This document shows, piece after piece, positions 5,323 through 20,000 of a stretch of DNA of 20,000 nucleotides. The stretch comes from an uncultured virus (IMG/VR IMGVR_UViG_2713896875_000003) (lineage: Duplodnaviria > Heunggongvirae > Uroviricota > Caudoviricetes). The notes beneath the pieces are model-generated. The model was not told the DNA's origin. It searched no databases and worked only from the letters and a program-made list of their open reading frames with translations. Numbering within the stretch: the first letter of the stretch is position 1; each line of letters begins with the position of its first letter. The position numbers and the translations under genes were made by a program. The stretch is taken from positions 52,394 to 72,393 of IMG/VR virus record IMGVR_UViG_2713896875_000003; one strand, 5' to 3'.

Positions 5323-5730
5323 ATGCGTGTATTAATTAGAAGTTCAGCATCTGGTTCAGAGTATTGGGATACCGAAGAAAAAAGAAATGTGTTTGTTCCT
5401 AAAGGCCAAGAACCAGATTTTGAAGTTACTGAAAATCCCGAATCAATGCTAAGTAAAGAAGCTGATTTATATGTTAGTGGTTTACCAATCACTGTAGGAA
5501 ATGAAACGGTTGATACTGATGGAATTAAAGGTGAACGATTATTAACAACTGCAACTGCAAGTGCTGATGATGAAGAACAAGATGAACTTGTTCCGTCTGA
5601 TGAATCTGTTGTATTAGAAGAAATGAATGTAAAAGAATTGCGTGAATATGCAAAACGAAAAGGTATTGAGATTCCAAGTGCTGCACGTGCAAAAGGTGAC
5701 ATTCTCAATATTATTAAAAAATCTGAATAA
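5323..5730 (+). CDS. Hypothetical protein with a C-terminal HeH/Rho-N/SAP-like helix-extended-helix motif
   Basis: RBS AAGGAG; C-terminal LEEMNVKELREYAKRKGIEIPSAARAKGDILNII; acidic linker; stop codon overlaps the HNH start (TAATG). Confidence 0.7.
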   Translation: MRVLIRSSASGSEYWDTEEKRNVFVPKGQEPDFEVTENPESMLSKEADLYVSGLPITVGNETVDTDGIKGERLLTTATASADDEEQDELVPSDESVVLEEMNVKELREYAKRKGIEIPSAARAKGDILNIIKKSE

Positions 5731-6107
5731 TGCGTTATTGTCAGTTTGAAGGTTGCTCTAATACAACAGAAAAAGGGGCTTATTGTTCCGAACATGCTAG
5801 GGAGTCTAGAAAAAAGAAAAAGCCAAGCAATGTTTATCATCATGACAACAAATCATTTTATCGAACAAAAGCATGGCAAGATGTCGCTGACTTTGTCTAT
5901 GAAAGAGAAAACGGTTGTTGTCAAAGGTGTGGTCGTTTTGTGTTTGGAAGGCAAGCACATCGGCATCATATAATACCAATCAAGAAGAACGAAATGCTCA
6001 AACTTGATCCAAACAATATTCGTTTGTTGTGTCCGAAGTGTCATGTGATTGAAGAAAATGAAGTAGATGAGAAAAAAGTTTTTCCATCTTATTTTAGGAG
6101 GAAGTAA
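5730..6107 (+). CDS. HNH endonuclease, terminase-associated (HK97 gp74-like)
   Basis: N-terminal CQFEGC...YCSEH; FYRTKAW; CQRC...HRHHIIP...NNIRLLCPKCH; just upstream of terS. Confidence 0.92.
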   Translation: MRYCQFEGCSNTTEKGAYCSEHARESRKKKKPSNVYHHDNKSFYRTKAWQDVADFVYERENGCCQRCGRFVFGRQAHRHHIIPIKKNEMLKLDPNNIRLLCPKCHVIEENEVDEKKVFPSYFRRK

Positions 6108-6807: not shown

Positions 6808-8531
6808 TTGAACCTGGTGTAAATTATGCTGATTTATTTGCGAAAGAAGTTCGAAAACATCCTAAGAAATATCCGAAAACGGTTCGTTTAGCAATAGATC
6901 GTTGGTATCGATGGAAGAAACGAAAAGATATTTGGTTTGATGTCGATCGTGCAAATGAAATGATGGACTGGGTAGAATCTTTTATTGTTCATACAAAAGG
7001 CGATATGGTAGGTAAACCATTTCTTTTGGAGCCATGGGAAAAATTCATTTATTCTTGGATTTATGGCTGGGTAAAAGAAAATGAAAAAGGGCAAGTAGTC
7101 CGTGTTACTCGTGAGGCATACGTACAAATACCAAAGAAAAATGGGAAAACACTAATAGCGGTAGGTGCGTTGGGGTATGCGATGTATGGCGAAGGTGCCT
7201 TATCTGTCGATTGCTATGCATGTGCTTCCGATTTTGCCCAAGCGCAATATGCTGCTAAGCCTTTTGCAGCTACTATCCTAAATAATCCAGTGCTATTAGA
7301 TGGGACTAAAATATTTAAAGGTCCAAAAGGCACCGTTTCAAGTATTACGTATGACTATTTATATGGAGATATGGCTTATACAAATAAGTTTATTGTTCAG
7401 ACAAAAAACATTGATAACATAGAAGGTTCCAATCCATATTTTGTTTTAAATGATGAGCTGCATAAACAAGAGAAAATGGAGCAGTACGATAACTTTAAAT
7501 CTGCACAAATTTCATTGCCACAACCGTTAATGTTTAATATTTCTACAGCTGGTAAAGGAAGTAGTTCGGTTGGTATTCGTGTTTATAAAGAAGCAAAAGA
7601 AGTCTTGAAGCGTGATGATAATGATTCAAACTTTGTTTTGATTTATGAACCAAATAAAGGATACGATTGGACAGATAAAAAAGTTTGGGAAATGTGCAAT
7701 CCTAACTGGGGAATATCTGTTGATTTGTCTGCTTTAGAATCAGCCTTTAAAACTGCGCAACGTTCCGCTCACTCGAAAGCTGAATTTTTAACGAAGCATT
7801 TAGATGTGTTTGTGAATGGTGCAGATAATTTTTTTGAACAAGATCAAGTGGAACCGTGTTTGGTTCCCACAAATGAATTAGGAAACTTAAGTGGTGAGCC
7901 ATGTTGGATTGGTTTGGACTTATCTAAAAGCCGAGATTTAACTTGCGTATCATTAAATTTTCCTACATGGGATGCCGAAGGAAAAGCGATACTCAAAGTA
8001 AAACAATTATATTTTATTCCTAGTGAAAATATTGATTTTCGAGAAAAGGAAGATAATGTGCCGTATTCTGAATTAGCAGAACAAGGATTTGTTGAATTTT
8101 GCGATGGTAAGTTAATTGATCAAGAACAAATATTTCATTTTATTGAAGATTGCATGGATTTTTATGATGTTCAACAAGTCAATTATGATCCAGCGATGAG
8201 TGACCGATTAGTTGAAAAATTGGAAAATTTAGGCTTGGAATGTGTGCAAGTTGATCAGTACGCAAGAGTATTGAACTCACCGCTTGAAGATGCCGAGCGA
8301 TTATTTTATGAGCAAAGGATTATGTTTGATAATCCTTTATTTTTGTATTGCGCTTTAAATGTGGTTGTCAAAATGGATTTTCAAGGCCGTAAAGTACCAA
8401 GTAAAAATCAGTCAAAGAGAAAGATCGATGGATTTGTTGCTTTCCTTTGTGCGCATAAGGAAACAATGGATCAAATGATTGATGTCAACGAAGATGATAT
8501 GGATGAATATTTAGATTCTATCTATCGATAA
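6804..8531 (+). CDS. terL: Terminase large subunit
   Basis: LEPWEKF; Walker A IPKKNGKT; Walker B VLNDELH; ISTAG; nuclease motifs IGLDLS, YDP and KIDG. Confidence 0.97.
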   Translation: MIEPGVNYADLFAKEVRKHPKKYPKTVRLAIDRWYRWKKRKDIWFDVDRANEMMDWVESFIVHTKGDMVGKPFLLEPWEKFIYSWIYGWVKENEKGQVVRVTREAYVQIPKKNGKTLIAVGALGYAMYGEGALSVDCYACASDFAQAQYAAKPFAATILNNPVLLDGTKIFKGPKGTVSSITYDYLYGDMAYTNKFIVQTKNIDNIEGSNPYFVLNDELHKQEKMEQYDNFKSAQISLPQPLMFNISTAGKGSSSVGIRVYKEAKEVLKRDDNDSNFVLIYEPNKGYDWTDKKVWEMCNPNWGISVDLSALESAFKTAQRSAHSKAEFLTKHLDVFVNGADNFFEQDQVEPCLVPTNELGNLSGEPCWIGLDLSKSRDLTCVSLNFPTWDAEGKAILKVKQLYFIPSENIDFREKEDNVPYSELAEQGFVEFCDGKLIDQEQIFHFIEDCMDFYDVQQVNYDPAMSDRLVEKLENLGLECVQVDQYARVLNSPLEDAERLFYEQRIMFDNPLFLYCALNVVVKMDFQGRKVPSKNQSKRKIDGFVAFLCAHKETMDQMIDVNEDDMDEYLDSIYR

Positions 8532-16603: not shown

Positions 16604-17313
16604 TTTTTATGAATCCTGATGAACCCAATTTCATTTGGAAAGATTTGAATGCAGTTCGCGATATGGGGTGTATTATCGAAAATGAGCTGTCAGAGGTTTT
16701 ACCAAATAAACGATATGAAACGTATTCGATTATCGGAAGAAGTGGTGAATTTAATGAAACGTTCAATGATTATGAACCCTTTGATTATGAAATTGAAGAT
16801 GTAACTATTCCATATGAGAACTTAAAAGAAGTCAAGCGTTGGTTAACTGGTAAAAGCAAGCTTATCACTCATAATAACGAGGACAAATATTTAGATGCTA
16901 TTTGTGCAATAAGCAAGCCAATCTCATTCAAAAATGAATGGGGTGTTTTTTATACCTTTAACATTGAATTTAGATGCCAACCTTTCAAGAGAAAAGTAAA
17001 TGAACAGCCTGTACTAATTAAAACAAAAACAGTTGAAATCACTGATCACGGTGACGAATCAGCATTTCCTTATATCGAGATTGATTCAAAAGGAGGCGAT
17101 ATTACGTTAAGCGTTGGTAGTAATTCACTAACGATTTTGCGTACACAATCAGGAATCGTCACTATTGATACCGAAAAGGGAAAAGCAATACAAGAAGGAA
17201 ATCCACTATTTACACGCGGTAGTTGGATAAAAACGAATCCTGGTCAAAATAAATTAAATATATCAGGAAATTTTATAGAAGCTAAGTTTTGGAATAGGAG
17301 CGCGTATTTATGA
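16600..17313 (+). CDS. Distal tail protein (Dit)
   Basis: Follows the TMP; IIGRSG, VKRWLTG, IEFRCQPF, PGQNKLNISG. Confidence 0.85.
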   Translation: MIFMNPDEPNFIWKDLNAVRDMGCIIENELSEVLPNKRYETYSIIGRSGEFNETFNDYEPFDYEIEDVTIPYENLKEVKRWLTGKSKLITHNNEDKYLDAICAISKPISFKNEWGVFYTFNIEFRCQPFKRKVNEQPVLIKTKTVEITDHGDESAFPYIEIDSKGGDITLSVGSNSLTILRTQSGIVTIDTEKGKAIQEGNPLFTRGSWIKTNPGQNKLNISGNFIEAKFWNRSAYL

Positions 17314-20000
17314 CACAAAATTTTATTTATGCCTATACTGCTATTCCTGAAAATTTAAACGATAACGGAATGGCTTTGCCAGATTGGCAAGATTTACCAG
17401 AAATTAACCGTGTGTTAAATGGTGTGTATCGATTCTATTGTAACTATGCAAGAGATGGCCAGTATCGCTCATACTTAAAAAAAGGAAACTTTCTAAAGGC
17501 ACAAGTTGAAGATGGATCATATCAATATTTTGAGATTTACAATATTAAAAAAAATCTGCAGTCAGTTTCAGTGACAGCGAGACACATTGGTTTTATGGCA
17601 AATAAGAATTTCATTATTGATTCGTTCACTGCTAACGGAAATGGCACGCAAATTATGAATAATTTAAAGGCTGCATTAACGTTTAAGCAACGGTTTAACT
17701 ATTTGTCGAATGTCGGTACTACACATCAATTTACAGCAAAACAAGTAGGTCCAATCGATGCAATTATTGGTTCTAACAATGGCAACCAAAATTTAACAGG
17801 TGTTACTGGTGGAGAATTAGAGATGGATAACTTTAATTTGAAATTAGTAAAACAAATTGGAGCAGATAATGGCTTTAGAATTGATTTTGGAATTAATTTG
17901 GAAGCTATAGATGAGGACTTTGACGACGAATCAATTATAAATAGTATCTTTCTTATCGGTGGCGTGCCAGACAATGATTATGACCAAGATAAAGAGCCAA
18001 TCACGTATGGATTTTTAGAAATTGCTGGTGTAAATGATAGTAACCGAAGAATTGGAAAACGTGAAAATTCGGAATGTAAAACAGTTGATGAGCTTAAAAA
18101 ATGGGGCCAGTCATTGTTTGATAAAGACCGTATTCATGAACCGAAAGTAACGCACACTATTAGCATGGTAGCATTAGAACACACCTTGGAATATGAAGAC
18201 ATGTACGAAGAGCTTTCTTCTTTGCATTTTGGTGATGTAGTACACGTGCGAGCAAAAGAAGTCGATATTGAAGTAACGGAGCGCATGGTGGAATATACTT
18301 GGTTTCCGACTTTAGGTAAATTTAAAAATATTGTTTTGGGGAATGATTTATCACTTTACACCTCAACAGTAAACAATCAAACTCAAGAGCTAAAACAAAA
18401 AATTGATAATCGGACAGAAACATTAGTACAAAATGTTTTAAATGCAACGGCATGGATTACTGGAAACAGTGGTGGACATGTCGTTTTTCGTCCAGAAAAA
18501 GCACCGTCTGAAATTCTTATCATGGATACGAATAAAGTTGCAACTGCAAAACGTGTGTGGCGTTGGAATTTAAACGGTTTAGGTTATTCCGACAATGGCG
18601 TTAATGGTCCTTTTGGAATTGCTATGACATCTAAGGGAGAAATCGTTGCTGACTTTATTAAAGTGGGCATTATTGACGTGAATGTTTTACAAACAAGCTT
18701 TAATAAAGCAACAGGCGATGTGCTAAAACTAGTGTCTGGTGCTTTGCAAATTTGGAATGAAAAGACAAAAATAATGGAACTAACCCGAAAAGGCATGGAG
18801 TTTTGGGACGGTTCAAGCCACGTTGGCACAATGGGAACAAAAGGGAATCCTTTTCCTGAATTAAACGATGTTAACGGAAATCCAGTCGTTACAGATGGCA
18901 AAGCATTGTTACTAGTTGGAGATAGTTCTTATAACACAATTGGATTATCTAACGAAAAAAATACAGGACTTGTCTTATCTGGTAAAAATCAGTTTCATTT
19001 GGGAAATCATTTTTATTTTATCGGTAAAGATGGAAATCCTTCTACGTTACACGTAGATAAGATTTTTATTAAAGGACAAGAAGTTATTCCTGGTCAAAAT
19101 GGTGGTGGTGGTTCTGGAGCTGGTACAGGTGGTTATCCATCAGAAGTTACAAGCGATGCAGATAAATTTGCTTGGGACTTATGGAGTTACCTATTAGCTA
19201 ACGGATACAGCAAAGCAGCTGCTGCAGGTATCCTCGGAAATGTACAAGGAGAAGTTGGTCCAAGTATGAACCCAGATACCGAACAAATAGGCGGTCCAGC
19301 TTACGGATGGGTTCAATGGGACGGTTCAGCATATCCATTGGTAGGCGCACCAACTTGGAATGGCCGAGAATATGTACAACGCTTAATCGCAGCTGCAGGT
19401 ATCAAACAAGACTATAGGACGTCATTAGCCCAAGCTCAATTAATTAATTGGTGTATGTTCAATGGGCAATGGTTAGGACAAGTAAGTCCATTAACAGTTG
19501 ATGAATTTAAAGTTGTCAGCTCGCCTAAAACAGCTGCTTATGCGTTTGAATTAAACTTTGAACGTCCAGCTGCAGCACATCCAGAAAGACAAACCTATGC
19601 ACAAGTATGGTATGACAAATTCAAAGATTTGAAAGCTTCTACTGCAACAGGAAAAGCTGGCATAGAACATTTGGAGACCTTAATGGGCAAATGGCTTGGT
19701 AATGGGCAATGTTATGCCGTTCCAGCCGAATATTCTGGTTTTATGGGCGGCTGTGGTTTAGGTGCAGGAACAATTTATGGCTTTTCACATGTAATTGGTG
19801 ATACATCATCTGCTGCAGATATTGGTGAAGCATATGATTGGAATGCGGTAGGTTGGCGAGTAATCCAAAATCCAACGTATCAAGATTTAGTGGTAGGAGC
19901 AATCGTCAATATTAGACGAGGTGGCCAATGGGGAACAGGTTGGACAGTAGACCCAACATATGGTCACACGGGTACGACACGTTTCCCTATAAATGTATAA
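17310..20000 (+). CDS. Tail-associated lysin/baseplate hub (Tal-like): prophage tail endopeptidase-like N-terminus, phage tail lysozyme domain, and a CHAP-like domain that appears truncated
   Basis: GGELEMDNF, LHFGDVV, WRWNLNGLG; GYSKAAAAGILGNVQGE...YGWVQW...FERP (lysozyme-like); GNGQCY...YGHTG (CHAP Cys/His); TAA at 19998-20000. Confidence 0.88.
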   Translation: MTQNFIYAYTAIPENLNDNGMALPDWQDLPEINRVLNGVYRFYCNYARDGQYRSYLKKGNFLKAQVEDGSYQYFEIYNIKKNLQSVSVTARHIGFMANKNFIIDSFTANGNGTQIMNNLKAALTFKQRFNYLSNVGTTHQFTAKQVGPIDAIIGSNNGNQNLTGVTGGELEMDNFNLKLVKQIGADNGFRIDFGINLEAIDEDFDDESIINSIFLIGGVPDNDYDQDKEPITYGFLEIAGVNDSNRRIGKRENSECKTVDELKKWGQSLFDKDRIHEPKVTHTISMVALEHTLEYEDMYEELSSLHFGDVVHVRAKEVDIEVTERMVEYTWFPTLGKFKNIVLGNDLSLYTSTVNNQTQELKQKIDNRTETLVQNVLNATAWITGNSGGHVVFRPEKAPSEILIMDTNKVATAKRVWRWNLNGLGYSDNGVNGPFGIAMTSKGEIVADFIKVGIIDVNVLQTSFNKATGDVLKLVSGALQIWNEKTKIMELTRKGMEFWDGSSHVGTMGTKGNPFPELNDVNGNPVVTDGKALLLVGDSSYNTIGLSNEKNTGLVLSGKNQFHLGNHFYFIGKDGNPSTLHVDKIFIKGQEVIPGQNGGGGSGAGTGGYPSEVTSDADKFAWDLWSYLLANGYSKAAAAGILGNVQGEVGPSMNPDTEQIGGPAYGWVQWDGSAYPLVGAPTWNGREYVQRLIAAAGIKQDYRTSLAQAQLINWCMFNGQWLGQVSPLTVDEFKVVSSPKTAAYAFELNFERPAAAHPERQTYAQVWYDKFKDLKASTATGKAGIEHLETLMGKWLGNGQCYAVPAEYSGFMGGCGLGAGTIYGFSHVIGDTSSAADIGEAYDWNAVGWRVIQNPTYQDLVVGAIVNIRRGGQWGTGWTVDPTYGHTGTTRFPINV

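Follow-up and report, generated by a model that had tools for sequence, protein, structure and literature searches.

A probable group IIB intron in the catalytic-motif codon of an enterococcal phage tail lysin, with copies on plasmids

Why does the tail-lysin gene at the end of a phage record break off inside its CHAP domain, directly after the catalytic histidine motif? The DNA in question is a stretch of 20,000 nucleotides (nt), here called the window, from the IMG/VR virus record IMGVR_UViG_2713896875_000003; we denote the full 72,393-base record (code G000) as C1, so that the window is C1:52394-72393. Its open reading frame (ORF) at 17310-20000 (+ strand, as are all window features below) encodes the tail-associated lysin of a temperate Enterococcus siphophage and matches TIGR01665, PF06605 and PF18013. 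The C-terminus of this ORF, YGHTGTTRFPINV, reads YGHTG-TTRFPINV and then stops at a TAA (19998-20000), which cuts the CHAP domain just as a preliminary description of the window had reported. That description ascribed the break to a group II intron with a variant 5′ end, inserted after the first G of a glycine codon. We find that the tail lysin very probably carries, in its YGHT-G codon, a complete group IIB intron encoding a reverse transcriptase (RT), that this intron is probably plasmid-derived by reverse splicing and would be spliced out on induction, and that the order of the record is most likely a scaffolding artefact.

Two CHAP exons and the intron between them

In the interrupted tail lysin, the Pfam CHAP match (PF05257) spans model positions 9-64 of 81 (E 0.007); in the intronless allele, it spans positions 9-81 (E 7e-8). 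The domain aligns to 5d74 (E 6e-8) and to PlyCA (E 2e-6), and alignment with solved CHAP lysins places Cys801 in a GQCY motif (codon 19710-19712) and His886 in YGHTG (codon 19965-19967), 4 nt 5′ of the insertion point. By this alignment, and by what is generally established for CHAP enzymes, Cys801 would be catalytic. Cys801 and His886 thus lie in exon 1 and the EQN motif in exon 2, and the set of motifs is complete only once the exons are joined. The missing 3′ exon, VIYGLNNGRIQTIEQNAE..., is found at C1:36950-37083, where the CHAP frame resumes with the E-x-N motif expected from the preliminary description; it is identical to that of phage SEsuP-1 in 134/134 bases. In the intronless allele of SEsuP-1, exon 2 starts at the base directly after exon 1, which fixes the break at the proposed position, 19971/19972. 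The 5′ exon (17310-19971; end set by intronless allele L004) therefore encodes the tail spike, the tail lysozyme and the start of CHAP, and stops at 19971, one base (the first G) into the Gly888 codon.

The last 29 nt of the window (19972-20000), whose letters are as first described, recur exactly at C1:34158 and C1:34230. Because the same 29 nt open a full group II intron elsewhere in the record, their likeness to an intron start is not due to chance. The full copy measures 2,647 nt (C1:34230-36876) and scores 118.8 bits against RF02004 (group-II-D1D4-5) and 59.4 bits against RF00029 (Intron_gpII). Its ORF (C1:34976-36751) encodes 591 amino acids from an ATG, or 603 from a probable GTG start at 34940, and carries RVT_1, a YADD motif and an HNH domain; it matches TIGR04416 with 345 bits (cutoff 300). 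The RT gene that had been expected to follow is therefore present in the record, but it does not lie downstream of the window. We identified domains I, V and VI of the ribozyme: domain V has a CGC catalytic triad (fold z -3.0), and domain VI ends in AT, in agreement with the anticipated AY. A 50-70 nt domain VII extension is absent, exon 2 starting right after domain VI; an extra 73 nt that might have been read as domain VII were rejected, being an exact repeat that is N-separated in a second record, G027. A transposase had been named as an alternative, but the RT is the sole long ORF of the insert and no transposase ORF is present in it (terminal inverted repeats were not searched separately).

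These features point to an RT-encoding group IIB intron that is probably bacterial class B-like, by class definitions taken from PMC4424553 and PMC3261151. Its RT-maturase-HNH protein is 44% identical over 617 amino acids to that of B.c.I4, a class B intron (PMC3261151), and 41-71% identical (best segment) to 80 GTDB loci. With the class B/IIB introns of Firmicutes (B.c.I4; group-II-D1D4-5), it has in common the RF02004 and RF00029 matches, the RT-maturase-HNH architecture, the AY end and three exon-binding sites (EBS1 through EBS3). It differs from the B.c.I4 group in its GUACG start paired with an AAGU bulge, its CGC triad, the lack of a 3′ extension and an EBS set that fits the codons of the CHAP motif GHTG.

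The caveat that the window merely runs into an assembly end holds insofar as the record has no base beyond position 20000. Yet in G027 (= L007), a near-clonal IMG/VR record that is 100% identical over the 20,000 window bases, exon 1 is followed by the intron in full, all 2,647 nt of it with 0 differences. Could the junction be an assembly chimera, formed through a short look-alike shared with a plasmid site? Assembly artefacts do occur at both intron ends, and the flanks of the phage and of the plasmid that precedes the intron in C1 (plasmid A) have their last 4 nt in common. Nevertheless, the two junctions are both present and fall on neighboring bases of the intronless allele, exon 1 of G027 runs 71 nt into the intron before an N, and the separately assembled sequencing run X3 has the same 5′ junction, exon 1 joined to the intron start, at a site that is the phage's best EBS match. 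We therefore regard a chimera as largely refuted and barely conceivable.

The variant 5′ end and its compensating base

The intron starts with GUACG, which departs from the literal GUGYG consensus at position 3. We surveyed 5′ ends at 92 loci with an RT match, of which 77 could be parsed and 15 could not: GTGCG occurs 45 times, GCGCG 15, GTGTG 10, GAGCG and GTGAG twice each, and GTGCA, GTAAG and GTACG once each. The single GTACG is the present intron in G027, and the single GTAAG is L005, a 95% allele. The departure is matched within domain I. In an alignment of 53 distinct sequences (51 relatives, whose RTs are with few exceptions at least 53% identical, besides L005 and the present intron), position 3 is G and position 172 is C in 51/51 relatives, whereas both the present intron and L005 have A and U. 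Position 172 is the last base of the 4-nt lambda/epsilon-prime bulge (nt 169-172), which reads AAGU here, AAGC in 49/51 relatives and AARC in the group IIB consensus. The neighboring pair 4:171 is C-G in the present intron; L005, disrupted by a deletion as well as by another intron, has A4 opposite G171.

Taken alone, the domain I alignment counts as one event, because three further columns (75, 304 and 333) share the pattern of positions 3 and 172. The published phage introns provide an independent test. Five of the 20 curated ones start with GTATG (PMC12350094), and of the three of these from Table S1 that we compared, those of AR9, LPJP1 terL (5′ end read by eye, not aligned) and c-st, 3/3 have AAGU, whereas the G3 introns of LPJP1 have AAGC in 2/2. 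A3 with AAGU and G3 with AAGC thus recur across published phage introns, and we conclude that the epsilon pair is kept by recurring compensatory change. The variant start noted in the preliminary description is real, but it is not a defect: as judged from these alignments, A3 is paired with a compensating U172, and GTATG provides a precedent. A3-U172 would thereby offer a clean natural compensatory pair for the epsilon contact.

Two further observations concern 5′ ends and related alleles. Among Bacillaceae relatives (L014-L040), whose flank TTGTGAA...TGTACT is common to relatives in many species, position 2 varies freely (GTGCG, GCGCG, GAGCG). L005 itself (L005:4002-5550; LR962543.1 and three more plasmids) lies at the site of plasmid A and starts with GTAAG. 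It has lost an internal segment, and a further group II intron (RF01999) is inserted in its stretch coding for YADD, which makes it a nested and decayed copy.

Target choice and copies on plasmids and phages

What directs the intron to this codon? We located its exon-binding sites by covariation across 47 exon/intron pairs, which places EBS1 at nt 375-380 (CUGUGU) and EBS2 at nt 311-316, replacing an earlier EBS2 candidate near nt 214-219; EBS3 is nt 429, whose pairing partner is the opening base of exon 2 in 19/19 cases. At the phage site, intron-binding site (IBS) 1 (ACACGG, 19966-19971) pairs with EBS1 at 6/6 positions, one of them a wobble, IBS2 (19960-19965) pairs with EBS2 at 4/6 (3 Watson-Crick and 1 wobble), and EBS3 pairs at 1/1, which bears out the predicted pairing with the exon end. 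This is the best EBS match of the phage: of its 70,798 other positions, 0 reach that score. The record as a whole contains a single further site that does, C1:7833; it is empty, lies upstream of the middle of ORF 7776-8093 and is a predicted further target. The complement of EBS2, EBS1 and EBS3 reads ..GGA CAC ACA G/G, that is, Gly-His-Thr-Gly, the CHAP catalytic motif. By reading conserved catalytic-motif codons, the exon-binding sites would give the intron a steady supply of targets. The CHAP gene of plasmid A itself pairs poorly, fails at EBS3 and is uninterrupted.

The same motif is occupied on plasmids. The sequencing runs that we examined (X1, X2, X3 and X7; 4 of the 24 listed) are all DNA contigs. 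In X2, the intron (2 differences, 101-kb contig) and in X7 a more divergent copy (44 differences) sit at the YGHTG of a plasmid-type CHAP gene, and X1 contains the intron with 0 differences, its phage allele being intronless. In G027, the right flank of the intron is exon 2 of a lysozyme-like plus CHAP gene that, on E. faecalis plasmids, is flanked by VirB4 and MobP2. The copy at C1:34158/34230 lies after a pheromone-type transfer region with surface exclusion, aggregation substance, TcpC/TcpF and PcfK/PcfJ genes. An earlier reading of this G000 plasmid site as a decayed CHAP gene arose because the left flank of G000 had been paired with the right flank of G027; it was withdrawn, the intronless plasmid L185 continuing differently into non-CHAP sequence. 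Identical or near-identical copies at different sites suggest that the element is mobile, and a plasmid-to-phage jump is its likely origin in the tail lysin. An intron ribonucleoprotein from a co-resident plasmid copy would reverse-splice into the prophage site, and reverse transcription would follow. The splicing and retrohoming steps are modeled on established group II intron biology. An identical donor is present on co-resident conjugative plasmids, and exon-binding sites that complement the codons of a CHAP motif common to plasmid transfer hydrolases and phage tail lysins would provide the reason for such a jump. Plasmid-to-phage homing, as well as the splicing of a virion structural gene on induction, becomes directly testable.

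Several observations weigh against this reading. Phage insertions are confined to G000, its near-clone G027 and X3; the three may represent a single strain, and we counted them as one insertion event. The X3 contig that joins the intron to exon 2 has 29 letters on its intron side, below the tool's 31-letter threshold. Exact junction patterns, which miss other alleles, found 54 intronless IMG/VR records and 1 intron-plus record, and a scan of metagenome contigs found 0 intron-plus phage junctions. On the plasmid side, the C1:34158/34230 copy lies at codon six of an ORF that is not a CHAP gene but imitates the target in its bases. As to pairing, EBS2 matches the phage site only in part, the presumed home sites mispair at -2, and L103, the best-pairing target seen, has no intron. 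Because the phage EBS2 pairing is partial and the home sites mispair, the direction from plasmid to phage rests on prevalence, not on pairing. In wider searches, G027 was the only further intron-plus phage record among the viral contigs, 0/50,697 phage records cover 80% of the intron, and PLSDB contains no full-length near-identical copy, only four partial copies at 94.5%.

Phages were thought to be free of group II introns until 2025, when Merk, Jones and Eddy described 20 curated phage introns and matches in 9,229 IMG/VR genomes; how the introns enter phages is still treated there as speculation (PMC12350094). In Table S2 of that paper, the G027 intron appears as two cmsearch hits without a host gene. 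Among the published introns are one in c-st, which starts with GTATG, has no ORF and interrupts the gene of a minor tail protein, and two cases of likely host-to-prophage retroposition (PMC12350094). The present intron shares with them an insertion in a coding gene for which intronless alleles exist. The 20 curated introns include none from Enterococcus and none that interrupts a CHAP lysin, the terms 'Enterococcus' and 'CHAP' occurring 0 times in the supplement (PMC12350094), and what sets the present case apart is that source copies occur on conjugative plasmids, at a homologous codon and with identical sequence. Phage group II introns are thus already published; the targeting of a CHAP codon across plasmid and phage we did not find described, nor did we find a paper on the present intron or on CHAP-targeting introns in a literature coverage that leaves out most subscription journals.

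The introns Ll.LtrB and Ef.PcfG belong to class IIA/ML. They target the conserved catalytic His motif of relaxase genes, proposed to supply many empty sites, and where different genes carry a copy at the same codon, exons can be shuffled in frame (PMC7947834). The present intron differs in class and in target family, and its targets span a plasmid transfer hydrolase and a phage virion protein. The intron might act as a shuttle or shuffler of cell-wall hydrolase domains between phage and plasmid: its insertion at the same codon and in the same phase of phage and plasmid genes means that trans-splicing or recombination would give an in-frame chimeric CHAP. We consider such a role unlikely. If it were true, the G027 order of exon 1, intron and plasmid exon 2 would, if real, be such a chimera, recombination between intron copies could fuse prophage and plasmid, and splicing efficiency could decide in what proportion CHAP-plus and CHAP-minus tail tips are made.

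In NZ_AP018540.1 (L095:2497-5126), a related intron (RT 60% identical, GTGAG start) interrupts a plasmid lysozyme-CHAP gene at its EQN motif (YEQNSE/KG), a second conserved CHAP motif. Many distant relatives at GTDB loci (L069-L088) are inserted after HNHP-like codons, such as AHNHPSG in L080, in genes that are presumably RadC-like; this suggests that a further lineage of introns is adapted to a conserved catalytic His motif.

Splicing, record layout and neighboring features

We infer that the tail-lysin transcript is spliced. On induction, the late transcript would yield a 931-amino-acid lysin, with the maturase supplied in cis or from the plasmid copies. Unspliced RNA would instead give an 896-amino-acid protein, ending at the premature TAA within the intron, that keeps the lysozyme, Cys and His and lacks the last 43 residues including EQN; it may also depress the expression of downstream genes. 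As proposed in the preliminary description, full-length lysin may thus depend on splicing, and two tail-tip variants may arise. A rival to this step alone is that the intron is present and splices poorly or not at all, the phage managing without the CHAP C-terminus or being a decaying prophage. The insertion belongs to the single lineage and the 1-to-54 minority described above, and a related intron lowers the expression of its host gene (PMC6003770).

Phage VEsP-1 also bears on this rival. Its deposited sequence (MZ333456.2, L003:3766-3893) contains a 128-nt insert, GG followed by intron nt 1-126 at 100% identity, at a position that corresponds to 19764/19765, which is empty in the window and lies 207 nt upstream of the target site. 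The insert splits the tail lysin inside CHAP and provides an in-frame ATG for the remaining CHAP, and yet VEsP-1 plaques on four strains (PMC9865981), as though the phage could do without an intact domain. The true target site of VEsP-1 is empty, with EBS1 pairing at 6/6 Watson-Crick positions. Its assembly was 'manually corrected', and the insert may be an aberrant insertion or an assembly artefact. Against poor splicing stand the intact ORF and ribozyme elements of the tail-lysin intron, with 0-2 differences from the X1 and X2 copies, the conserved epsilon and EBS pairs, and the large structural ORFs of the window, all of which are open. Poor splicing therefore appears doubtful to us, and splicing on induction remains the reading that we prefer.

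The record begins with plasmid A, the intron and exon 2, continues further on with lysin, the 49-bp core and the integrase, and finishes with exon 1 and the intron start. It opens at an ATG and closes at the premature TAA, from which we infer that it was trimmed at gene boundaries; a circle with wrap-around was rejected, the ends showing no terminal overlap of at least 8 nt. Tandem duplications of period 30-119 occur in the record only at the intron ends (72 and 73 nt). G027 has duplications of 76 and 75 nt there, with one N between, and in X1, X2 and X7 the intron forms one plain block without duplications. A biological origin of the 72/73-nt repeats (template slippage or domain VII) was rejected in favor of scaffold overlaps, which are N-separated in G027. 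In G000, plasmid A is joined to exon 2; in G027, exon 1 is joined to a different plasmid gene (plasmid B). One crossover should give reciprocal products; because these pairings are not reciprocal, we read the order as arbitrary, the plasmid-intron-phage succession being most likely scaffolding through a collapsed repeat of at least three copies.

Might the layout nonetheless be real? The phage circle, once excised, would then have recombined with a plasmid of the pheromone type by way of their two identical introns, and the product would be a cointegrate whose attP is intact. The record runs through plasmid, intron and exon 2 and later from exon 1 into the intron, there is no N at the join of lysin and integrase, and intron-mediated recombination has been reported (PMC7947834). 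Downstream of exon 2 follow BppU, a holin, an endolysin, the attachment (att) join and the integrase. The 49-bp core (C1:41750-41798; L001:8751-8799), between endolysin and integrase, has the attP form, whereas in 14/14 related IMG/VR records it runs into another shared sequence that we read as probable chromosome. Depth in X3, a weak measure, gives no sign of amplification (about 236-268 for the listed phage contigs and 218 for the plasmid-side bin). Apart from the lack of reciprocity, however, both joints carry the overlap duplications, G027 ends at the integrase stop without the lysin, which suggests ordinary integration, and in X3 loose ends of host type flank the core on either side, although an empty attB would look alike. 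A cointegrate thus seems quite improbable, and scaffolding through the repeat remains our preferred account of the order. In virus records derived from drafts, multi-copy introns can in this way join a prophage to a plasmid.

The start of the core encodes LHRETK followed by a stop, and together with a translated loose end from the sequencing runs, this makes the core look like the 3′ end of rpmG. An attB was found neither in the 25 + 2 genomes searched nor in plasmids, and L001 contains no tRNA. Nearly half of this 'virus' record (C1:1-34157) is a pheromone-type conjugative plasmid region that includes a nuclease. In it, a VirB4/TcpF-like ATPase is split into two ORFs (C1:16250-17467 and 17666-18538), and four Ns lie at C1:25528-25615.

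Within the 5′ exon, a Gly-rich linker (residues 597-608; 19098-19133) precedes the catalytic domains and resembles, in likeness only, the processing motif of TP901-1 Tal; the phage tail lysozyme that follows (PF18013, residues 621-771; 19170-19622; E 4e-25) is whole whether the transcript is spliced or unspliced. Tal of TP901-1 forms two tip variants by proteolysis at its Gly-rich motif (PMC11409707). Tal of TP901-1/Tuc2009 and the present lysin have in common a tail spike, a Gly-rich linker and a catalytic C-terminus, but the present lysin combines lysozyme with CHAP in a gene split by an intron, whereas the heterogeneity of Tal arises from proteolysis. The N-terminal part of the lysin (17310-19100) is another allele than that of SEsuP-1, whereas the catalytic ends of the two agree at about 99%; 528 residues are identical in all. 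This pattern is consistent with a module exchange near the Gly-rich linker. Elsewhere in the window, a 135-amino-acid acidic ORF (5323-5730) and a putative HNH-type ORF (5730-6107) precede the terminase genes, an arrangement that is usual for cos-type phages.

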